In this document: in pieces, positions 1 through 15,403 of the stretch
Layout: each line of letters begins with the position of its first letter
How positions within the stretch are numbered: position 1 is the stretch's first letter
Source: a virus
Lineage: Duplodnaviria; Heunggongvirae; Uroviricota; Caudoviricetes
Length of the DNA: 27,795 nt
Reading direction: 5' to 3' (one strand)
IMG/VR virus record: IMGVR_UViG_2703718828_000002
Coordinates: 1-27,795 of that record
Translations under genes and position numbers: made by a program
The notes under the pieces: generated by a model
The model's database searches: none
What the model saw: the letters and a program-made list of their open reading frames with translations, nothing else
What the model was told of the DNA's origin: nothing

Positions 1-120
1 ATAAGTTGGAGTCATTACCGCATAAATCAACTAATTGAAATTACTAGAAATTATTTAGAAGCAGTAATCAATGGTTTTGATGACTATTTAAATAGAACAT
101 TGTACAGGACCGTCGCTTAG
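1..120 (+). CDS. C-terminal 39 codons of an ORF entering from upstream of the window; unknown product; convergent neighbour of the first cytosine methyltransferase
   Basis: Frame is open from base 1 to TAG at 118-120 (ending ...NYLEAVINGFDDYLNRTLYRTVA*); AT-rich like the adjacent MTase; a hairpin plus T-tract follows 16 nt later. Absent from the ORF track only because it is under 60 aa in-window. Confidence 0.3.
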   Translation: MSWSHYRINQLIEITRNYLEAVINGFDDYLNRTLYRTVA

Positions 121-135
121 AAAATATACGATCCC

Positions 136-161
136 ATGGCGTGCAATTGCACGCCATTTTT
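136..161 (+). terminator. Rho-independent terminator between convergent genes
   Basis: Perfect 22-nt palindrome ATGGCGTGCAATTGCACGCCAT (136-157) followed by T-run 157-161; lies between the stop of the partial ORF (120) and the stop of the minus-strand MTase (160-162). Confidence 0.5.
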
Positions 162-1191
162 AATTTGAAAGGTGCTTGAGAATACTTTGCCCAATGATCT
201 CGCCTAACCTTACCGGCACTGCATTTCCTATCATTCTTGCTGTTGATGCAATGTCCAAACTAGATTCTTTATCGAAAAATAAATAATCTTTCGGAAAACT
301 TTGCAGTATCGCAGCTTCTCTTAAGGAGATTGCCCTGTTTTGTTCTGGATGACCAAAGCGTCCATTACCAAAACCATAGCATTGTGTGGTTATTGTTGGA
401 CTTGGTTCATTCCATGACATCCTGCCATAAACACTTTTATAAAATTTTCCAGACTCTTTTAAGTGACAAGGTGCTCTCAAGTGTATCGGCCAATCATGCC
501 AATCGCCTCCGGGCTTTGAAGCTTTAATACGCTCCATGTTCAAAGGGCTAAGAGTAGAACATTTATGAAGTGGATCGCGCTTGTCACATTCTCCAGCATT
601 TAATGATGGAAGGCCAAATATTGCATCCTTAACAGTTACGTAATTTTTTTTGTTATGAGTCGGATCAATTATAGAGATAGGACCTAATTTGGATGCTAAT
701 AATACTAAACGTTTACGAGTTTGCGGCATTCCATAATCTGGGCAAAAAACGATCTTATAATAAACATTATATCCATGGCCTTCAAGGTTGTTTATGAAAT
801 CTTTAAATATGTCTTGTGTCATCAAGCCTGGTACATTCTCCATCGTGACGATAGAGGGTTGCGTTTCATCAATTAACCGCGAAAAAGAATATAATAATGC
901 CCATTTGTCATCTTTTTTCTTGTTTTTAGTTCTTCCATATGTTGAAAACGGCTGACAAGGAGCGCATCCAGCTAAAATCGTTACATCTGAATCTTTAAAA
1001 TGACTGAGGATCTGTTCACCCTTCAAAACGGTTATGTCTTGATTGATAAAAACTGCATTATTATTAAATTCAAACGCAAAACGGCAGGTTTCTTCAATAT
1101 CATAACCTGCTACAACATCAATGCCTGATTGCTTTAACCCATGGGTTAGCCCCCCGGCTCCGCAAAATAAATCTACTGCTTTGATTTTCAA
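160..1191 (-). CDS. DNA cytosine-5 methyltransferase (Dcm-like m5C MTase), copy 1
   Basis: 343-aa translation carries m5C-MTase motifs: DLFCGAGG (motif I), GCAPCQPFS (catalytic PCQ, motif IV), ENV (motif VI), QTRKR (motif VIII), GNAVPV (motif X). Start codon is TTG (rc of 1189-1191). AT-rich relative to the integrase next to it. Confidence 0.9.
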   Translation of the reverse strand: MKIKAVDLFCGAGGLTHGLKQSGIDVVAGYDIEETCRFAFEFNNNAVFINQDITVLKGEQILSHFKDSDVTILAGCAPCQPFSTYGRTKNKKKDDKWALLYSFSRLIDETQPSIVTMENVPGLMTQDIFKDFINNLEGHGYNVYYKIVFCPDYGMPQTRKRLVLLASKLGPISIIDPTHNKKNYVTVKDAIFGLPSLNAGECDKRDPLHKCSTLSPLNMERIKASKPGGDWHDWPIHLRAPCHLKESGKFYKSVYGRMSWNEPSPTITTQCYGFGNGRFGHPEQNRAISLREAAILQSFPKDYLFFDKESSLDIASTARMIGNAVPVRLGEIIGQSILKHLSN

Positions 1192-1223
1192 AATAATTCT
1201 CTATCTATTTTCAATTTATGCCT

Positions 1224-1260
1224 ATTATAACAGCTTTCATAAGCAACATCGATGATTAGT
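1224..1260 (-). promoter_or_regulatory. Candidate extended -10 promoter for MTase copy 1
   Basis: Minus strand reads TGtTATAAT (rc of 1224-1232), a perfect -10 hexamer with TG extension; the -35 region is poor. Sits in the 72-nt gap between the integrase stop and the MTase start. Confidence 0.3.
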
Positions 1261-1263
1261 TAT

Positions 1264-2457
1264 TCACATCATTTCTTTGACTTTGCTTCCCCACCATTTC
1301 ATAACTACAGCACGTTGTTCAAGGTATGTGCTACGGTTGTAGGCTCTACGTACCTCATTTTTGTCTGAATGAGCTAAGCAAGCCTCAATAACATCTGCGT
1401 TAAAGCAAGCTTCATTCATCGCGGTACTTGCTATAGAACGTAAACCATGCGCAACGAGCTTTCCATTATACCCAATACGTTTCAGTGCAGCATTCGCCGT
1501 TTGGCTATTCATCGGTTGCTTAGGATCATTCCTACTAGGGAATACGTGTACACGATGGGCACTGATAGGTTTCATTACTTCAAGTACCTCAAGTGCTTGA
1601 GGTGACAAAGGAACAATGTGCTCGCGTTTTGCCTTCATCCGCTCTGCTGGAATTGTCCATAGCTTAGCCTCAAAATCTATCTCTGACCATTGAGTACCGG
1701 AAGCTTCTGAGGGCCGTACGATAGTCAGTAGTTGCCATTCAATCAGGCAGCGAGTCGGGACTGATAGGTTTGACATAACCAATGATCGCATTAACTTTGG
1801 CAGTTCTTCTGGCCGCAATGTCGGCATGTTTTGCTTTTTAGGTTTCTCAAATGCCATACCAACACCTGATGCTGGGTTGCCATCAATCAAGCCGGTGTTA
1901 ACCGCATAAATCATTATCTCGTTGATGCGCTGCACCAGTCGACGTACAGTCTCAAGCGCCCCACGAGCTTTGATTGGCTCAAGAGCTTCAACCAGTGTAC
2001 GGGCTTTGATTTGCTGAACGGGGATCTCACCGATGGCAGGGAATACATCTTTCTCCAGTGAGCGCCAAATGTCTTTTGCGTAATCAGGAGTAACGCTTTT
2101 GCTTTTGAGCTGGAACCAGTTAGCGGCTACTGTTGAAAAAATACTGTCCAGTGCGATTTGCTGCTGTTCCTCTGCAACTTCAGCTTGAATTTGTGGGTCG
2201 ATTCCGTTGGCTAATAAAGCAAGGTAATTCGCTCTTAACCCTCGGGCATCAGCAAGCGAAAGGGCGGGGAAAGCACCTAGCCCCATCATTGTCCGTTGTT
2301 TTGTCGCCGGACGTTGATAACGAAAGCGCCAGAGCTTTTTTCCACTGGTTTTCACTATCAGGAAAAGGCCATTGCCATCATGCAGCGTTAGATCCTTCTC
2401 TAACGCTTTAGCGCGAAGAACTTCGGTATTGGTCAGGGGGCGTGTTGTCCGTGCCAC
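1264..2457 (-). CDS. int: P4/CP4-57-type tyrosine integrase (ssrA-targeting IntA-like)
   Basis: 397-aa translation beginning MARTTRPLTNTEVLRAK...LWRFRYQRP resembles P4-family integrases as recalled; GTG start (rc of 2455-2457) preceded by AAGGAG 8 nt upstream; the ssrA 3-prime core lies about 185 nt upstream on the same strand. Confidence 0.85.
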   Translation of the reverse strand: MARTTRPLTNTEVLRAKALEKDLTLHDGNGLFLIVKTSGKKLWRFRYQRPATKQRTMMGLGAFPALSLADARGLRANYLALLANGIDPQIQAEVAEEQQQIALDSIFSTVAANWFQLKSKSVTPDYAKDIWRSLEKDVFPAIGEIPVQQIKARTLVEALEPIKARGALETVRRLVQRINEIMIYAVNTGLIDGNPASGVGMAFEKPKKQNMPTLRPEELPKLMRSLVMSNLSVPTRCLIEWQLLTIVRPSEASGTQWSEIDFEAKLWTIPAERMKAKREHIVPLSPQALEVLEVMKPISAHRVHVFPSRNDPKQPMNSQTANAALKRIGYNGKLVAHGLRSIASTAMNEACFNADVIEACLAHSDKNEVRRAYNRSTYLEQRAVVMKWWGSKVKEMM

Positions 2458-2641: not shown

Positions 2642-2686
2642 TGGTGGAGCTGGCGGGAGTTGAACCCGCGTCCGAAATTCCTACAT
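2642..2686 (-). other. ssrA: Attachment-site core: terminal 45 nt of the tmRNA (ssrA) gene, not an intact gene
   Basis: Plus strand TGGTGGAGCTGGCGGGAGTTGAACCCGCGTCCGAAATTCCTACAT is the reverse complement of the recalled enterobacterial tmRNA 3-prime end (...AUGUAGGAAUUUCGGACGCGGGUUCAACUCCCGCCAGCUCCACCA). The match stops at 2686 and the flanking sequence is unrelated AT-rich DNA. Confidence 0.8.
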
Positions 2687-2818: not shown

Positions 2819-4339
2819 TTATTCAGGCTTTAATTTATTGATAATAGAATCTACCATTTTAATGCCTGCCTCATTGACTATGACTGAATTGACTACTCTA
2901 TCAAAATAGTCTTCTATATGGTGGGAAAATAGGAAAGCAGCACTTGATGGTTTTTTGTTCTTTTCAACTGCAGATTGCAAGACTTCATGAGGCGGAATTT
3001 TAAACCTTTTGCATGATGCAATGAGATATTCAAACTCTTCAAATGATAGACAAAAAATATTCTCTGTAGGGATATGATAGTTATGTTTAAACTTGTCATA
3101 TATCTTATTCATCTCATCTTTAGCATAAGTATTAGCTAGGATACTACCATTGCCTAAGAAAAGGTTTTTATATGTAATGCAAATGATATATGAGTTAGCC
3201 CTGAATGGAGCTATTATTCGCTCATTAGAGTATATTTCTCGATTAACTTCGTGAGATTGTTCGATTGCTTTTAATACCGATTTCTTTATTTTTCCTGCAA
3301 TATCCTCAGGGCGTAATGTTACCATGCCTTTTTGGTGTATCTCAACGCCTTTAGCATCAATGAAAATATTTGCCTCAGTATGTGGAATGAAATAATCAAC
3401 TACTTTATTATCTTTAGGTAGTCGTTCTTTAAGGTATTTTTCGTTATGAAAATCAATTTCGCTTTCTTTTAGTATTAATTCCAGTGCATTTTCAAATACA
3501 TTTCCAAAGCTATCCATGAACTTCTCGGCATCAGTTCTTCTTAAAAGATCATATATGAACGTCTGTATGCTTGTTGAAGTCAGTTGTGTGTGTATCTGAA
3601 AATACTCTGAACCTTTTTTTATTAATGGTTTTTCAAGGAAAGGTGATGATGAGTAGTATTCAAGCAAAGGTTTATCATAGGTTTTTGATTTGCAAAATGT
3701 AGATAGTTCATTGTAATTTATTGATATTGCATCAAGAAATTTCTCAATGGTATTTCTAGGAATGATGTCAAATAATATAGTAAATGTATCTACATTCATT
3801 TTTCTCACGGGATGCTCTTCTGTTATGTGAGTTATTAATATGTAAGATAGCTTAAGAAAGTCTTCTATAGATACATTCGTGATAGTAAAAAAACTTGTCT
3901 TTATTTTATGGTTTTTTTCAAGTTCTGAAAATAGAAAGACTTGTCTGCTAATTGTGTTTAGAGCGTCAATTTTCTGGTAGATTCCTTGTTGGTATAGATT
4001 ATTTCTAATGAAGAAATGCATGCCATTCTTCCTCTCAAGACCGATAGGAATAATGTTCAAGGTTTCATAAGTTTTTTGGAAGAGTTTTATTGCTTGATTT
4101 TTATCGAGGATTTTGAATTTTTTATTCTTGCCAGTTACTGACGCAGACCACTTTAGACATAAATTAACAATCCAAGGCATGTGTCGTAACATGTGGATAT
4201 TATCTTCAAATTTTTGTAAGTTATATTGCATACAGAATTCGATAAATAAATCAGGGGAATAACCTTGGATTTCTGAACGAATAGCATCCATTCTTAACTT
4301 TGCAACCGCATCAGATTGAATATCTAATTTTTGAATCAC
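2819..4339 (-). CDS. Hypothetical 506-aa protein; AT-rich cargo gene between the att core and the prophage integrase
   Basis: Long uninterrupted ORF with markedly lower GC than int; GTG start (rc of 4337-4339) with GGAG 9 nt upstream overlapping the int stop; no family recognised by eye. A weak D...DxK pattern (VVDYFIPHTEANIFIDAKG) is the only motif-like element noted. Confidence 0.65.
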   Translation of the reverse strand: MIQKLDIQSDAVAKLRMDAIRSEIQGYSPDLFIEFCMQYNLQKFEDNIHMLRHMPWIVNLCLKWSASVTGKNKKFKILDKNQAIKLFQKTYETLNIIPIGLERKNGMHFFIRNNLYQQGIYQKIDALNTISRQVFLFSELEKNHKIKTSFFTITNVSIEDFLKLSYILITHITEEHPVRKMNVDTFTILFDIIPRNTIEKFLDAISINYNELSTFCKSKTYDKPLLEYYSSSPFLEKPLIKKGSEYFQIHTQLTSTSIQTFIYDLLRRTDAEKFMDSFGNVFENALELILKESEIDFHNEKYLKERLPKDNKVVDYFIPHTEANIFIDAKGVEIHQKGMVTLRPEDIAGKIKKSVLKAIEQSHEVNREIYSNERIIAPFRANSYIICITYKNLFLGNGSILANTYAKDEMNKIYDKFKHNYHIPTENIFCLSFEEFEYLIASCKRFKIPPHEVLQSAVEKNKKPSSAAFLFSHHIEDYFDRVVNSVIVNEAGIKMVDSIINKLKPE

Positions 4340-7723: not shown

Positions 7724-7950
7724 TGGCTGATGCAATGGATCTTGTACAGCAGCGCGTTGAAGAAGAACGCCAGCGCCATATCCGTGCTGCCCGTGCCAAA
7801 ACGCCGGGCGTGTCCCGCGTGCTTTGCATTGAGTGTGAAGCGCCAATTCCGCCAGCACGCCGCCGCGCCATTCCAGGTGTGCAGCTTTGCATTACCTGTC
7901 AGGAAATCGCAGAACTGAAAGGCAAACATTACAACGGAGGTGCTGTATGA
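7723..7950 (+). CDS. DksA/TraR-type C4 zinc-finger protein
   Basis: 75 aa with CIECE...17 residues...CITCQ (Cys-x2-Cys...Cys-x2-Cys) at the C-terminus. Confidence 0.7.
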   Translation: MADAMDLVQQRVEEERQRHIRAARAKTPGVSRVLCIECEAPIPPARRRAIPGVQLCITCQEIAELKGKHYNGGAV

Positions 7951-8804
7951 GCACCATCCTGAAATGGGCGGGAAATAAAACCGCCATTATGTCCGAACTG
8001 AAAAAACACCTTCCTGCTGGCCCGCGACTGGTTGAACCTTTCGCGGGTTCCTGTGCTGTGATGATGGAGACGGATTACCCCAGCTATCTGGTTGCGGATA
8101 TTAATCCTGATTTAATCAACCTCTATAAAAAGGTTGCCGCTGATTGTGAATCGTTTATATCTCGCGCCAGAGTTTTATTTGAGATCGCAAACAGGGAGGT
8201 GGCTTATTACAACATAAGGCAGGAGTTTAATTACTCCACTGAAATTACTGATTTCATGAAAGCGGTATATTTCCTGTATCTCAATCGTCACGGTTACCGT
8301 GGTTTATGTCGCTATAACAAGAGCGGGCATTTCAACATTCCCTACGGTAATTATAAAAATCCGTATTTCCCTGAAAAAGAAATTCGCGCATTTGCAGAAA
8401 AAGCCCAGCGGGCAACGTTTATCTGCGCCAGCTTTGATGAAACGCTGGCGATGTTGAAGGCGGGGGATGTGGTGTATTGCGATCCGCCGTATGACGGCAC
8501 GTTTTCCGGTTATCACACTGACGGCTTCACTGAAGATGACCAGTATCACCTGGCATCCGTTCTTGAACATCGGTCATCAGAAGGACATCCGGTCATTGTT
8601 TCTAACAGTGACACATCCCTGATCCGTTCGCTGTATCGCAATTTTACTCACCACTACATCAAGGCAAAACGCAACATCGGTGTGGCAGCTGGCGAGGGTA
8701 AATCAGCAACAGAAATCATTGCTGTTTCCGGGCCGCGCTGCTGGGTGGGATTTGATTATTCGCGTGGCATGGACAGTTCTGCCGTGTACGGAGTACGTGC
8801 ATGA
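7947..8804 (+). CDS. dam: DNA adenine methyltransferase (Dam-like, N6-adenine)
   Basis: N-terminal LKWAGNK AdoMet-binding motif and catalytic DPPY (VYCDPPYDG). ATG 7947 with GGAGG 6 nt upstream, overlapping the previous stop (ATGA); the track start at 7887 has no RBS. Confidence 0.9.
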
Positions 8805-11215: not shown

Positions 11216-11307
11216 TTACGCGGGTTAACAATTCGTGCTCTTAATAATACCAGGCATATCAGGCTGATGAACGTAAAAAAACGTTTTACATCAGTAAGAT
11301 TATTGTA

Positions 11308-11327
11308 TACTGTAAATATAAACAGTG
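11308..11327 (+). promoter_or_regulatory. LexA (SOS) box
   Basis: TACTGTAAATATAAACAGTG contains a perfect CTGT-N8-ACAG with AT-rich spacer (core 11310-11325), about 40 nt upstream of the small ORF at 11369. Confidence 0.6.
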
Positions 11328-11368
11328 GTTATGCATACAGTATTGCGTGTGGTGTCATAGGAGGAAAG

Positions 11369-11557
11369 ATGCAGGACTATTTTTTGGAGTCTTTGAAGCT
11401 CCAGCGCATTGATTTTTTTCTTAAGCTTGTAGCGGCCAGTGAGTGTAGTGATGAAGAGAAGGGGCTGGCTCTGCAGTGGGTTTCTGAATTGACTGATGAA
11501 CTCATGGCAAAAATCAGAACCCACGAATACAACCGCTCAATGGATGTCATCAGTTGA
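11369..11557 (+). CDS. Small hypothetical protein, first gene of the LexA-boxed module
   Basis: ATG 11369 with AGGAGGA RBS (11359-11365); 62 aa; its TGA stop (11555-11557) is embedded in the RBS of the next gene. Confidence 0.5.
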   Translation: MQDYFLESLKLQRIDFFLKLVAASECSDEEKGLALQWVSELTDELMAKIRTHEYNRSMDVIS

Positions 11558-11567
11558 GGTGACTTTT

Positions 11568-11801
11568 ATGCGCATTGAAATAATGATCGATAAAGAGCAG
11601 AAGATTAGCCAGTCTACCCTGGACTCTCTTGAATCCGAGCTTTACCGCAATCTGAGCCCCCTGTATCCCAAAGCGGTAATTCGTATCCGTAAAGGTAGCG
11701 CCAATGGTGTTGAACTGAGCGGGTTAAAACTGGATGAAGACAAAAAGCGAGTGATAGAAATCATGCAGCAGGTCTGGGAGGACGATAGTTGGTTACATTA
11801 G
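11568..11801 (+). CDS. DinI-family protein (SOS-inducible, possible Tum-like antirepressor component)
   Basis: 77 aa MRIEIMIDKEQ...IRIRKGSANGVELSGLKLDEDKKRVIEIMQQVWEDDSWLH aligns by eye with E. coli DinI (MRIEVTIAK...ISEILQETWESADDWF); RBS GAGGTGA 11556-11562. Confidence 0.7.
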   Translation: MRIEIMIDKEQKISQSTLDSLESELYRNLSPLYPKAVIRIRKGSANGVELSGLKLDEDKKRVIEIMQQVWEDDSWLH

Positions 11802-11842
11802 CGAACAGAATTTAGCCAAGCGATAAGTCATTCATCCAAGGG

Positions 11843-11865
11843 GGCGGCGTTTGCCGCACTTTTAT
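11843..11865 (+). terminator. Candidate terminator after the DinI-like gene
   Basis: GGCGGCG-TTT-GCCGC hairpin followed by ACTTTTAT; marks the boundary between GC-rich phage DNA and the AT-rich cargo block. Confidence 0.35.
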
Positions 11866-11998
11866 GGATGTTAGAACTAGTATTTTAGATCTTTATTTTA
11901 TTTAACATTTTGATTGTTATGCATTTTATTTGTTTTTGTTACTTTTGTCTGTAAAAATTTTGTAGGGTAAAATCATCATCGAAGTCGAGTTAAAATGA

Positions 11999-12007
11999 TG
12001 CTACAAT
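11999..12007 (+). promoter_or_regulatory. Candidate extended -10 promoter for MTase copy 2
   Basis: TGcTACAAT at 11999-12007, about 27 nt upstream of the TTG start; RBS AGGGAGGA at 12021-12028. Confidence 0.3.
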
Positions 12008-12034
12008 CCTTCAAGTATAGAGGGAGGACTTATT

Positions 12035-13075
12035 TTGATTAAAGTTGTTGATCTTTTTTGCGGAGCAGGTGGCTTAACTCATGGTTTGCAACGAGCAGGG
12101 TTGAATGTGGTTGCAGGCTATGATATTGATGCTACATGTCGGTATGCTTATGAAAAAAATAACAATGCTTTATTTGTGCAAAAAAGCGTCACTGAACTTG
12201 ATGAAGGGGAAATAAGTAAGCATTTTAAGGATGCATCAATTAAAGTTTTAGCTGGATGCGCTCCATGCCAGCCATTTTCTAGTTATACAAATACTGATAA
12301 ATCAGTAAAAAAAATAAAAGACCATCGATGGTCTTTATTGTATAGCTTTGCTAAGCAAATTCAATTATGTGCTCCAGATATAGTCACAATGGAGAATGTT
12401 CCAAGAGTTATTAACCACAAAGTTTTTAAAGATTTTGTGAAGACTTTAAAGTCTGAAGGGTATTTCGTTTGGTATGATACTGTATTTTGTCCTGATTATG
12501 GAATGGCCCAAAGCCGATCTAGATTAGTGTTATTAGCGTCCAAGTTTGGCGAGATAAAACTAATCCCGCCAACACATGATAAAAATAACTATAACACTGT
12601 ACGTAGCGTTATTGGTGGATTGCCTCCTATTGATGCTGGATCGAGTGATGAGAAAGACAGACTTCATTATGCTGCATCTTTATCACCATTAAATATGGAG
12701 CGAATAAAACATTCTAAGCCAGGTGGAACATGGAAAGATTGGCCTGAGTACTTACGGGCGTCATGCCACACCAAAGAATCAGGATCTTCTTACACTGCAG
12801 TTTATGGAAGAATGAGCTGGGATAAACTTGGCTCTACAATTACAACACAATGTATAGGTTTTGGTAATGGTCGATTTGGTCATCCAGAACAAAATAGAGC
12901 TATTAGCCTAAGAGAGGCAGCTTTGCTTCAATCTTTTCCTCTAACTTATGAATTTTGGCCAGCTGAAGTAAAAGTTGAACTCAGGAATGTTGCACGACTG
13001 ATTGGTAATGCTGTGCCGGTGAGGCTCGGTGAAGTTGTTGGGCAAAGTATTATTGAACACCTTAAAAGAAAATAA
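12035..13075 (+). CDS. DNA cytosine-5 methyltransferase (Dcm-like m5C MTase), copy 2, paralogous to copy 1
   Basis: 346 aa with DLFCGAGG, GCAPCQPFS, ENV, QSRSR and GNAVPV motifs; collinear by eye with the 160..1191 protein along its whole length; TTG start with strong SD; AT-rich. Confidence 0.9.
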   Translation: MIKVVDLFCGAGGLTHGLQRAGLNVVAGYDIDATCRYAYEKNNNALFVQKSVTELDEGEISKHFKDASIKVLAGCAPCQPFSSYTNTDKSVKKIKDHRWSLLYSFAKQIQLCAPDIVTMENVPRVINHKVFKDFVKTLKSEGYFVWYDTVFCPDYGMAQSRSRLVLLASKFGEIKLIPPTHDKNNYNTVRSVIGGLPPIDAGSSDEKDRLHYAASLSPLNMERIKHSKPGGTWKDWPEYLRASCHTKESGSSYTAVYGRMSWDKLGSTITTQCIGFGNGRFGHPEQNRAISLREAALLQSFPLTYEFWPAEVKVELRNVARLIGNAVPVRLGEVVGQSIIEHLKRK

Positions 13076-13099
13076 AAAGGGCGAATCGCCCTTTTTTTT
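13074..13099. terminator. Bidirectional terminator shared by the convergent MTase and GHKL genes
   Basis: A-run, GGGCG-AAT-CGCCC hairpin, T8 run; overlaps both stop codons (13073-13075 and 13098-13100). Confidence 0.5.
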
Positions 13100-15056
13100 A
13101 GATACCATCAACAATTTTCATTATTCGTGCAGCATCATCTTTTTTGCTCTGATACTCAGAGTATGCTTGTTTGGATTGTATTATAAGATCGCTATATGTT
13201 AATACCTTTGCATTTATAGATTGTAGCTGTGAGCGAATATAATTATCTCCACTTCCGTCATAACCTTTGCCGACAAGAAAAACTACATCTATCGGTGGTA
13301 TTTTTCCGGCAGGGCAACTATTTGGGTTGTTTCTAAACCACTGCTCTGTGGCAACAACATATTTCCTTCCTTGACCTACTAATGCCAAAATATCAGGATA
13401 TACATTTGGTCTTTTCATTTCAATGATGACGTGTTTACCTGAAACGGTTTTGAAGGCTATATCAATTCTTGCACCACTTTCAGCGTCAGGGTTAACCTCT
13501 TTCAATTCCTTAGTCAGGGTTTGTTCCATAACTGTAGAACCAGTAACCCTCTCCCATGATGGGTCTAACAGCCATAAGTGGTCATAAAGATATTTTTGTA
13601 CAGCCTTCTCTAACTCATTGTCATCGGTGATTTTTTGAAATTTCTCAATAACTTTCAATCGCTGTGATGTAATCTCATAAAAAAGGCTTGCCTCAATATC
13701 ATTTACAGAAGCAAAAACCTCCCTAAAATGTTCTGAGTTTAAATCGCTAATTTTATCTAAAGCCTCAAGGTTATCTTTTATTCTTAATCTTTCAAAAGCA
13801 AGAACTGTATTTTTTAATACGGTTTTTTTTGCAATTTTCTGGTTTTCTTCATCTCCAGAAAATCTAAATGTGTTAATTTTGCCTAGTAATTTTTCGGCGC
13901 TGTTTCTTTCATGTTTTGACATGGAATCAAGCCAATCACTTACAGCAGGTGAAGTTTTTTTAACCTCGCTAAGACCTTTTGCTCTTCGCCATTCATCCCA
14001 TTCTTTATCTATTTTTTGTAATGTCCGTTCTAAGAAACCCTTAATCACAGGATAGCGTGGATCATTCTGCTGTAATTTCTGTCGGGATGAGGTTGCCATG
14101 TCAGGTTTTTCATTTTCATCTAAAAAATCTGCGACAAGTTCCCCTACTAAATAATTTGTAAAAACCTTTGCGCTTCCGAATTCAAGCAATATATCTTCTT
14201 CAAATACCCGCCCATTTGATATTACGGTTATCGTGTTGTTAGATATTTCAGGGTCTTTTTTAAGTTGAGATGGTTTCTCAACACTTCCTACATAACCAGT
14301 AATGAAATAATCTACGCCTTCAAAAGATAATTTGTTATCTAGAAGGCTTTTTTTAGAAAGATTTTTGCAAGATTTTACTCTTGCGGGATCTGAACTACCA
14401 AACTCCCATAAAAATTCAAGATCTGAAAGGAAGTCTCTATCTTCAGTAGTTATCTCAGTGTCATTGATTTTAACTATAAAATCATGACCAGGACCAATTA
14501 TGCTAAACCGTCTGGCAAGTCTTTTTCTTAGATAGGTCTGAGTTCTATCAATGGATTTTTTTAAATCCATAAGAACTATTGTCGTCCCTATACTAAAGTC
14601 TTTCGGAACATTAATAATATTTGCAACATATTGTTTACTGCTTTTTATACAGCGTTGCAATTCATCAACGTCAACTTCAAATCCCTGAGGCGTTTGGCCA
14701 ATTTTGTGAGAAAATACTTGGATTTTGTTAGCTAATGAAAACATTGCTAATTTACCAATGCCTTTTCTACCCATGACTTGTCGTTGTAATCCATCACTTT
14801 TATACCTTCCACTTTCTCTTCTGGCATATCCAACTTTTAGGAATTTATTAATGATGTCATCTTTTGACATTCCATGTCCATCATCTTTAATTATTACCTT
14901 TTCATTTTCAACATCTAGAGTGATGTCTACATTTTTAGCATCCGCATCCCAAGCATTTGAGATTATTTCAGTTAGAACAGCTGGTGTGTTAGAGTAAAGA
15001 CTCATACCTAAATGATTCAATACATTCAGGTCTATTTTAATTTCGAAATCGGACAT
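13098..15056 (-). CDS. GHKL-superfamily ATPase (MORC/MutL/Hsp90-like Bergerat fold) with C-terminal PD-(D/E)xK-like motif; candidate effector partner of MTase copy 2
   Basis: 652 aa. N-terminus carries N-box EIISNAWDADA, G1 box DDGHGM and G2 box GRKGIGKLAMFS; C-terminus carries RIDIAF...12 residues...IIEMKRP (D...ExK). ATG at rc 15054-15056 with AAGGA RBS; AT-rich. Confidence 0.8.
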   Translation of the reverse strand: MSDFEIKIDLNVLNHLGMSLYSNTPAVLTEIISNAWDADAKNVDITLDVENEKVIIKDDGHGMSKDDIINKFLKVGYARRESGRYKSDGLQRQVMGRKGIGKLAMFSLANKIQVFSHKIGQTPQGFEVDVDELQRCIKSSKQYVANIINVPKDFSIGTTIVLMDLKKSIDRTQTYLRKRLARRFSIIGPGHDFIVKINDTEITTEDRDFLSDLEFLWEFGSSDPARVKSCKNLSKKSLLDNKLSFEGVDYFITGYVGSVEKPSQLKKDPEISNNTITVISNGRVFEEDILLEFGSAKVFTNYLVGELVADFLDENEKPDMATSSRQKLQQNDPRYPVIKGFLERTLQKIDKEWDEWRRAKGLSEVKKTSPAVSDWLDSMSKHERNSAEKLLGKINTFRFSGDEENQKIAKKTVLKNTVLAFERLRIKDNLEALDKISDLNSEHFREVFASVNDIEASLFYEITSQRLKVIEKFQKITDDNELEKAVQKYLYDHLWLLDPSWERVTGSTVMEQTLTKELKEVNPDAESGARIDIAFKTVSGKHVIIEMKRPNVYPDILALVGQGRKYVVATEQWFRNNPNSCPAGKIPPIDVVFLVGKGYDGSGDNYIRSQLQSINAKVLTYSDLIIQSKQAYSEYQSKKDDAARIMKIVDGI

Positions 15057-15121
15057 ATCCTTTCCTTGCTGAAGCTTGTAGGCAGAGCTTAAGCCTACTC
15101 ATGTGAACAAAATCCCTCGAA

Positions 15122-15150
15122 ACTAAACATTGATTTTGACTAAATGTCAA
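15122..15150 (-). promoter_or_regulatory. Candidate promoter for the GHKL gene overlapping a 15-nt palindrome
   Basis: Minus strand TTGACA (rc 15145-15150), 17-nt spacer, TTTAGT (rc 15122-15127); TTGACTAAATGTCAA (15136-15150) is a perfect 5-5 inverted repeat that includes the -35. Confidence 0.35.
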
Positions 15151-15296
15151 ATGTAGATGTTGCCTTGTGTAATGCATATCTATGCTGCATGAATACGCAT
15201 GATCTCTTAAGGATCGCTTTTGTTGAAGCACGCCAGAATTGGCGGGCTTTTGCTTATGTCATGCATGTGCATGAAAACTACTACATGAAGCGGGCA

Positions 15297-15315
15297 GGCG
15301 TGGCGGGGATACGAG
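15297..15315. other. Candidate cos site (cohesive-end sequence of P2/186 type)
   Basis: GGCGTGGCGGGGATACGAG matches the first 13 nt of the 19-nt cohesive end recalled for P2/186 (GGCG[A/T]GGCGGGGAAAGCA...); located just beyond the portal gene end, as cos is in P2. Confidence 0.45.
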
Positions 15316-15403
15316 CGCGCGCAGCGGGGTAAAATGGCCAAAATCCGGCGCAGCCTCTGGCCCGCTGGCGGCCTCATTTTGCGTAGGGGGGATAAATGTC
15401 AGG

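Follow-up and report, generated by a model that had tools for sequence, protein, structure and literature searches.

An IS1-interrupted DUF262–HEPN–methylase cassette beside a P4-type integrase, and alternative partners of its methylase family

Operons that combine a HEPN nuclease, a ParB-like DUF262 protein and a DNA methylase have been known in computational form since Anantharaman, Makarova, Burroughs, Koonin and Aravind described the MAE_28990 HEPN/ParB(DUF262)/DNA methylase operon in 2013 (Biol Direct 8:15, Table 1; PMC3710099), and Rousset et al. (2022) catalogued the same combination among P2-hotspot loci, together with loci pairing DNA_methylase and HATPase_c_3. The cassette type, which RefSeq also annotates, is therefore already known. 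Here we analyse a stretch of viral DNA of 27,795 nucleotides (IMG/VR record IMGVR_UViG_2703718828_000002, positions 1 to 27,795; hereafter the window) that encodes two paralogous cytosine-5 DNA methyltransferases (C5-MTases), MT1 at its left end beside a P4-type integrase and MT2 within a P2-like prophage. We consider it probable that MT1 is the modification subunit of a three-gene cassette resembling a restriction–modification (R-M) system, carried as cargo by a P4-like satellite at ssrA; the nuclease gene of this cassette is broken here by IS1. What is new is the identity of the MT1 partner, its disruption by IS1, and the quantitative coupling of one MTase family with a conserved target recognition domain (TRD) to alternative effectors. 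The left end of the window is arranged as follows.

1..19, no strand: terminal 19 nt of an IS1 element whose body lies upstream of the window, marking the break in the partner gene (by identity to IS1A)
20..120, plus strand: 3' remnant of a HEPN_MAE_28990 nuclease gene, comprising part of codon 210, codons 211-242 and the stop codon (by match to locus L001, 15001-15101)
136..157, no strand: hairpin with a 9-bp stem, a 4-nt loop and a T-run, a probable terminator (terminator scan)
160..1191, minus strand: MT1, an intact C5-MTase of 343 aa with a TTG start (PF00145, TIGR00675)
1264..2457, minus strand: P4-type tyrosine integrase of the satellite, 397 aa (Arm-DNA-bind_3, Phage_int_M, Phage_integrase)
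2642..2686, minus strand: last 45 nt of ssrA (tmRNA), an attachment-site copy separating the P4-like element from the P2-like prophage (aligned to the annotated ssrA 3' end in L001)

The first-pass annotation, made from the letters of the window, had described the gene converging on MT1 as an unknown partner. Related genomes identify it as a 242-aa HEPN_MAE_28990 nuclease, preceded by a 352-aa DUF262 protein. Positions 20..120 are 100% identical to L001 15001-15101, the end of a coding sequence annotated as 'MAE_28990/MAE_18760 family HEPN-like nuclease', and the intact protein encoded there matches PF18737 (E=5e-18) and carries the HEPN motif R189-N-K-L-A-H194-G, which is invariant in 18 homologues (in general form R-N-x-x-A-H-G). 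Homology with intact cassettes begins at base 20, the second base of HEPN codon 210, and the preceding bases 1-19 are the annotated end of IS1A of E. coli K-12 (L012 197-215), with 19 of 19 nt identical, no mismatches, and no such match expected by chance. The HEPN gene is thus disrupted by IS1 within codon 210 while the MTase is intact; the break falls after the RNxxAH motif (189-194) and cuts the C-terminal 32 residues from the interrupted gene. The earlier observation that the last 39 residues of the partner do not resemble the C-terminus of the GHKL protein found beside MT2 stands, the partner being a HEPN protein, but those 39 residues are a composite of six IS1 codons, a hybrid R in place of S210, and 32 HEPN residues. 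Both the IS1 transposase genes and the 8-9 bp target duplication fall outside the window, and the exact IS1/HEPN junction had no match among contigs of species-representative genomes or IMG/VR viral contigs.

Given that IS1 has broken the partner gene, an appropriate annotation of the locus is that of an orphaned methylase rather than of an active second defence system. MT1 and the integrase are intact, MT1 being identical to the alleles of complete elements. Surveys of P4 elements (Rousset et al. 2022; Moura de Sousa et al. 2026) find defence pseudogenes to be rare, at <1% of pseudogenes, so that disruption of a defence gene by IS1 is uncommon. Breaks by insertion sequences on the restriction side of a cassette with an intact MTase are what would be expected if it follows R-M logic, in which the nuclease side can be freely lost and the methylase cannot. 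A second, independent strike of an insertion sequence on the nuclease side was seen in another locus (L009 11803-13846; GCA_031118935.1), where a DDE_Tnp_1 element lies at the 5' end of the DUF262 gene, the product measuring 343 instead of 352 aa, with HEPN and MTase intact.

On the other side of the terminator, MT1 matches PF00145 from end to end (E=1e-61; 209 bits against a cut-off of 22) and TIGR00675 at 141 bits (cut-off 100.65), and contains the motifs DLFCGAGG, APCQPFS, MENVP, QTRKR, REAAILQSFP and IGNAVP; membership of the C5-MTases was judged by motifs I (FxGxG), IV (PCQ), VI (ENV), VIII (QxRxR), IX and X (GN), with the TRD between VIII and IX. The hairpin at 136-157, a perfect palindrome of sequence ATGGCGTGCAATTGCACGCCAT, sits between the stop codon of the plus-strand partner (118-120) and the convergent stop codon of MT1. 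The MT1 protein is WP_000692716.1 (100% identity), present in 7 complete E. coli genomes, and MT1-related MTase DNA was detected in 173 of 5426 complete E. coli genomes. Searches for MT1 homologues returned generic names only, and no REBASE-type name indicating specificity.

Evidence that this MTase belongs with the HEPN and DUF262 genes comes from conservation of the triad across genomes. A metagenome scan centred on HEPN, with an alignment of seven HEPN sequences as query, returned 80 loci; a DUF262 gene lies directly upstream in 79 of them, and a C5-MTase of the same family, 45-76% identical to MT1, is adjacent in 73. All three genes are present in every locus with sufficient flanking sequence (28/28), and the seven without an MTase are truncated contigs. 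In these triad loci the DUF262 proteins are 50-58% identical to the E. coli protein, against 34-42% for HEPN, and the ParB/DUF262 NTPase motifs DYQR and DGxQR are conserved. Gene order varies, the MTase being first, last, or, in Enterobacterales, convergent, with tight spacing and frequent gene overlaps. Within E. coli the triad also occurs in lambdoid prophages (behind the Q antiterminator) and in a tRNA-Thr island, always in the same convergent layout; P2 hotspots carry it as well. RefSeq annotation and scans with Pfam and PADLOC agree on the HEPN and DUF262 identity of the MT1 partners. The three genes are thereby shown to form an obligate unit across bacteria, and because this analysis and a second, independent one centred on the MTase (below) agree, we take the methylase to be part of the DUF262–HEPN system.

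The satellite setting is equally plain in complete elements. In L001 the annotated order runs from ssrA through integrase, MTase, the convergent HEPN-like nuclease (242 aa) and DUF262 protein (352 aa) to ogr/Delta, and onward to a polarity suppression protein, a capsid assembly (sid-like) protein, regulators and a primase-helicase; this is a complete P4-like satellite with the cassette in the cargo hotspot between int and psu/delta. The stretch 20-2686 of the window recurs with 100% identity in 7 of the 5426 complete E. coli genomes. In a public collection, 1405 indexed blocks contain the exact MT1 protein, and all ten distinct contexts listed (10/10) contain int, MTase, HEPN (242 aa, PF18737), GmrSD_N/DUF262 (352 aa), Ogr_Delta, Psu, Psu(sid) and primase genes. 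Of the satellite genes the integrase lies inside the window, while psu, sid, delta and alpha are found in every homologous locus; the stretch of the source genome past the IS1 end lies outside the window.

The second methylase resides some 11 kb away, in a module of its own.

12035..13075, plus strand: MT2, C5-MTase paralogue of 346 aa in the hotspot of the P2-like prophage (PF00145, 5e-57)
13074..13096, no strand: hairpin common to the convergent MT2 and GHKL genes, with a 10-bp stem and a T-run (terminator scan)
13098..15056, minus strand: GHKL-ATPase restriction enzyme of the BbrUII/HgiDII family, 652 aa, cognate partner of MT2 (NF050001, PADLOC, HATPase_c_3)

Much of what had been said of the two MTases from the letters alone is borne out. 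MT1 and MT2 are collinear paralogues with 62% identity and 77% similarity over 342 residues and one gap of three residues (BLASTP 5e-168), aligned across all motifs (FCGAGG, PCQPFS, ENVP, QxRxR, RE..QSFP, GNAVP). Both genes are AT-rich, with a G+C content of 0.379 for MT1 and 0.378 for MT2, where the window as a whole has 0.488 and the phage core genes ~0.53; both share a hairpin with a convergent gene (136-157 and 13074-13096); the integrase beside MT1 is of the P4 family; and the two MTases occupy the cargo slots of a P4-like satellite (int–psu/delta) and of a P2-like prophage (gpA/DinI–portal) lying in tandem at ssrA. The two genes are 63% identical in nucleotides and 42% at third codon positions. 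The closest relatives of MT1 are MTases of Atlantibacter, Acinetobacter, Yersinia, Buttiauxella and Pectobacterium (97-72% identical), and not MT2. When MT1 was searched against sequences in the Protein Data Bank (PDB), eukaryotic DNMT1 ranked first, matching over its catalytic domain with the TRD-proximal half included (query 209-338), above M.HaeIII and M.HhaI. The similarity is noteworthy in that the eukaryotic MORCs have been proposed to descend from GHKL/MORC-type partners of such methylases (PMC2292703); the PDB matches of MT1, confined to DNMT1, M.HaeIII and M.HhaI, carry no information on specificity.

The MTase-centred scan, with one genome per species, yielded 72 loci, among them 59 full-length family members of 47-97% identity that are spread over Proteobacteria, Bacteroidota, Firmicutes, Actinobacteria, Planctomycetes, bacteria of the candidate phyla radiation and one nanohaloarchaeon. 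Thirty of the 59 have a GHKL homologue as neighbour, 19 have the DUF262→HEPN pair, and 10 have other neighbours, namely Z1-domain proteins, an SNF2 helicase with an MmeI/Eco57I-like enzyme, or a NERD-UvrD helicase. DUF262 and HEPN occur together, and in that order, in all 19 loci of their type. On a neighbour-joining tree of the 59 members plus MT1 and MT2, the partner types are intermixed: the GHKL-linked MT2 groups with gammaproteobacterial MTases linked to DUF262/HEPN, including MT1, and its six closest sequences in the set are all of the DUF262/HEPN type. Seen more generally, one and the same methylase family recurs with different effectors, on mobile elements of many kinds.

Two further arrangements of partners were seen in this set. 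The less common partners are represented by loci L031 and L070 (SNF2 with an MmeI/Eco57I-like enzyme), L060 and L078 (Z1-domain) and L028 (NERD-UvrD). In Firmicutes, MTase–GHKL pairs (L025, L029, L030, L032, L042, L043, L050-L054) are preceded by a conserved block that encodes another C5-MTase, a 317-aa DUF4928 protein and a Vsr mismatch endonuclease (136-145 aa), an arrangement suggestive of a larger unit of five genes that has its own repair of m5C (5-methylcytosine) deamination.

Conservation within the family peaks in the TRD (residues 206-285), 29 of its 80 columns being at least 90% conserved, and no alignment column separates the GHKL-linked from the DUF262/HEPN-linked MTases. Because of these two properties, the alignment argues for a single recognition specificity whatever the partner. 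Comparison of the TRDs of MT1 and MT2, which the first-pass annotation had named as the way to predict like or unlike specificity, gives 63-93% identity by window of the alignment and points to the same one.

As to what that specificity may be, the module of MT2 is informative. Its 652-aa GHKL protein matches the NCBIfam equivalog NF050001, 'BbrUII/HgiDII family restriction enzyme', over its full length (752 bits against 550), as well as PADLOC REase_II (303 bits) and Pfam HATPase_c_3; a PDB sequence search with this protein found Hsp90/HtpG N-domains only, and nothing on the nuclease domain. M.HgiDII and M.BbrUII are m5C MTases for GTCGAC, the former experimentally characterised and the latter its Bifidobacterium counterpart (PMC5867850), and by its sequence the MT2–GHKL module is a member of this known Type II R-M family (SalI isoschizomers, GTCGAC). 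MT1 is likely to have the same or a very similar specificity, probably GTCGAC. In the enterobacterium Chania, GTCGAC was assigned on the basis of REBASE to an MTase 44% identical to M.BbrUII, next to a putative 'REase' of 735 nt / 244 aa (PMC5005818); the size of that gene (735 nt) is that of the HEPN protein.

Past position 2686 the sequence is that of the left end of a P2-like prophage such as the one in strain PEC1011 (L013), with the order repressor, cox-side genes, Dam-like methylase, gpA, DinI-like gene, MT2 and GHKL, portal, terminase, capsid. The slot of MT2, which in L013 runs from the DinI-like gene to the portal gene, is the classical P2 hotspot between the replication genes and portal. 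Several neighbours deserve mention. The early operon of the prophage carries a Dam-type adenine methylase at 7887..8804 on the plus strand (MethyltransfD12 in homologous loci), and the window therefore encodes three DNA methyltransferases. Between the ssrA-fragment attachment site and the P2-like integrase, an open reading frame of 506 aa (2819..4339, minus strand) belongs to the GapS1 antiphage family (NF047931, 428 bits against 320; no Pfam match) and represents a third slot for defence cargo in the window; the identical protein occurs in 2163 indexed blocks of the collection and adjoins the same P2-like integrase in 10 of the 10 contexts listed. The slot from DinI to portal (11267..15400 in the window) is hypervariable when compared with L088-L097, P2-like prophages that agree from integrase to gpA in gene order and, almost exactly, in gene size: its cargo includes a Cap4-type nuclease with a 552-aa partner, AIPR, DUF4145 and GmrSD, and in the window the HgiDII-type R-M module. 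Next to other ssrA islands beside this prophage lies a pair of HEF_HK/HATPase_c and Response_reg_2 genes (L013 1-2234; L093 13620-17088), the two-component-like pair that reportedly accompanies R-M systems and paraMORC ATPases (PMC8011034).

In the mechanism that we propose, MT1 would mark self DNA by m5C, probably at GTCGAC. The DUF262 protein, a ParB-like NTPase whose C-terminal half, like that of NsnA and SspE, would bind DNA, would sense unmethylated sites in an NTP-dependent manner and license the HEPN nuclease, with its R-N-x-x-A-H-G motif, against the invader or its transcripts. Precedents for the sensor role are SspE, the DUF262 restriction arm of phosphorothioate modification (PMC12707154), and the sensor model put forward for NsnA. 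With HEPN broken, MT1 would be left as an orphan methylase redundant with MT2, and we speculate that it cross-protects the satellite and host DNA from the HgiDII-type enzyme of the prophage. A bolder version seems possible though doubtful: that DUF262 and HEPN are an alternative restriction arm for a GTCGAC-type MTase, forming a methylation-gated 'R-M' that targets RNA or is abortive and is interchangeable with GHKL/MORC-like enzymes, with orphan MT1 pre-protecting the satellite from the isospecific enzyme of the helper-type prophage.

Several points weigh against this reading. Characterised HEPN domains are, to our knowledge, RNases, so that 'restriction' of DNA by the HEPN protein of the triad is conjecture; we found no experimental test of the triad in the literature. 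Because the two-gene DUF262–HEPN system PD-T4-2 works without a methylase, and is not toxic in K-12 (Vassallo et al. 2022), such a pair need not depend on methylation. We infer GTCGAC for MT1 from TRD conservation in the family and from the partner of MT2 rather than from a direct comparison with M.HgiDII, and avoidance of GTCGAC in the window is not significant (2 sites against 3.8±2.0 expected). Many GHKL partners resemble the HgiDII model in no more than their N-terminal ~370-400 residues, so the MTase family may be heterogeneous in both partner and specificity. Finally, the window starts at the IS1 end, and an IS1-mediated deletion or a rearrangement may have occurred instead of a simple insertion. 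Among the GHKL partners themselves, the C-terminal regions in L026, L032, L039, L056 and L065 are unrelated, and full-length HgiDII members are limited to the window protein and that of L069, so the presumed nuclease/recognition part of these enzymes may be modular.

The alternatives differ in how much of this cassette they would dismantle. A layered defence resembling PrrC, in which DUF262 is the DNA-cleaving restriction subunit matched to the MTase and HEPN a latent suicide RNase that the R-M proteins keep inactive and that is freed when restriction is blocked, departs from our reading only in which protein cuts what; we judge it unlikely, though it deserves a hearing. The usual RNase activity of HEPN domains would suit it, as would the better conservation of DUF262 than of HEPN in the triad loci. 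It is also the model that Anantharaman et al. give for HEPN genes within R-M operons (PMC3710099). The DUF262 protein, however, has no recognisable nuclease domain beyond its ParB-like fold and no DUF1524/HNH, its best matches are sensor proteins of the NsnA and PD-T4-2_A types, and we found no experiment in the literature that bears on the model. It is very unlikely that DUF262–HEPN is instead a modification-dependent (Type IV-like) or methylation-independent system after the manner of GmrSD or PD-T4-2, with the MTase as a neighbouring orphan such as an anti-restriction methylase against the HgiDII-type enzyme of the helper. The characterised DUF262 enzymes GmrSD and BrxU do attack modified DNA (PMC12707154), PD-T4-2 needs no MTase, and MT1 is orphaned here alongside an HgiDII-family R-M system; yet the presence of this one MTase family in 28 of 28 well-flanked HEPN loci, in tight and often overlapping operons, would be unexpected of a chance neighbour, an m5C-dependent nuclease beside an m5C MTase would attack its own host, and most genomes with the cassette lack an HgiDII-type module.

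What the first-pass annotation had favoured, namely an exchange of MTase modules between helper and satellite, or two specificities each guarding its element against the other, now looks highly improbable. The idea drew on the placement of the paralogues in the cargo slots of a tandem helper-type prophage and satellite-type element, and the grouping of MT2 with DUF262/HEPN-linked gammaproteobacterial MTases, its nearest relatives in the sampled set and among them MT1, would agree with an exchange. Against it stand the low nucleotide and third-position identity of the two genes, the far closer relatives of MT1 elsewhere, the presence of the MTase family in all major phyla, and the distribution of the modules, with module 1 in 7 complete E. 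coli genomes and module 2 in 2, without overlap. The same triad moreover travels in the lambdoid prophages, tRNA-Thr island and P2 hotspots noted above, and a 2026 survey found only one exchange of a defence gene between P2 and P4 at >85% identity (PMC13586616). Two mutually protecting specificities are disfavoured as well, given that conservation in the family is highest in the TRD, which holds no positions that follow the partner class. Our preferred reading remains that of a three-gene cassette with MT1 as its modification subunit.

The cassette is a common one: its MTase family extends across bacterial phyla and into the Archaea, and the carriers of the cassette are satellites, P2-like and lambdoid prophages, and plasmids. 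Nothing in the window itself is mechanistically surprising, but the DUF262–HEPN–methylase triad is a good experimental target, and it raises the question of how a HEPN-fold nuclease could serve as the restriction arm of a methylation-based system for telling self from non-self.

Several described systems share parts with this one. Menshen, PD-T4-2, GmrSD and DISARM were each considered as the identity of the cassette and rejected, their defining components being absent (the top PADLOC match of the MTase is DrmMII), and WonAB and VcSduA proved irrelevant as relatives of the GHKL protein (PMC12137116). The best match of the cassette DUF262 protein in a library of defence systems, at 175 bits, is NsnA of Menshen (NsnABC), a ParB-DUF262 protein with a DNA-binding domain and a proposed DNA sensor; the cassette differs from Menshen in having neither the NsnB ABC-ATPase nor NsnC, with HEPN and MTase genes next to DUF262 instead. 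The PD-T4-2_A model, from the two-gene anti-T4 DUF262 and HEPN system of ECOR65 (Vassallo et al. 2022), matches the same protein over its full length at 117 bits, whereas the PD-T4-2_B model gave no match to the 242-aa HEPN protein at E<=0.01; PD-T4-2 further differs in having no methyltransferase and a short HEPN gene, the whole system measuring 1540 nt. In SspABCD-SspE, SspE is likewise a DUF262 restriction arm, and the differences are that the cassette would use m5C rather than phosphorothioate and HEPN rather than DUF1524/HNH. With HgiDII/BbrUII the likeness lies in the methylase, MT1 by its sequence falling in the same MTase family with a conserved TRD, and the difference in the partner: an NF050001 enzyme stands beside MT2, whereas the neighbours of MT1 are HEPN and DUF262, not GHKL. 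The location agrees with what is known of the P4 hotspot (Rousset et al. 2022; Moura de Sousa et al. 2026), as AT-rich cargo between int and psu/delta, next to cos and variable among otherwise similar elements. Closest of all is the MAE_28990 operon of 2013, which has the same architecture of a PF18737 HEPN protein with an Rx4H motif, an upstream DUF262/ParB-like gene and an adjacent DNA methylase; the intact alleles of the cassette show each of these features (PF18737 HEPN with an Rx4-6H motif, upstream DUF262, adjacent methylase), while the window retains HEPN codons 211-242 only. That operon is known only from comparative genomics, and the copy described here is set apart by its place in the hotspot of a P4-like satellite and by its inactivation by IS1.

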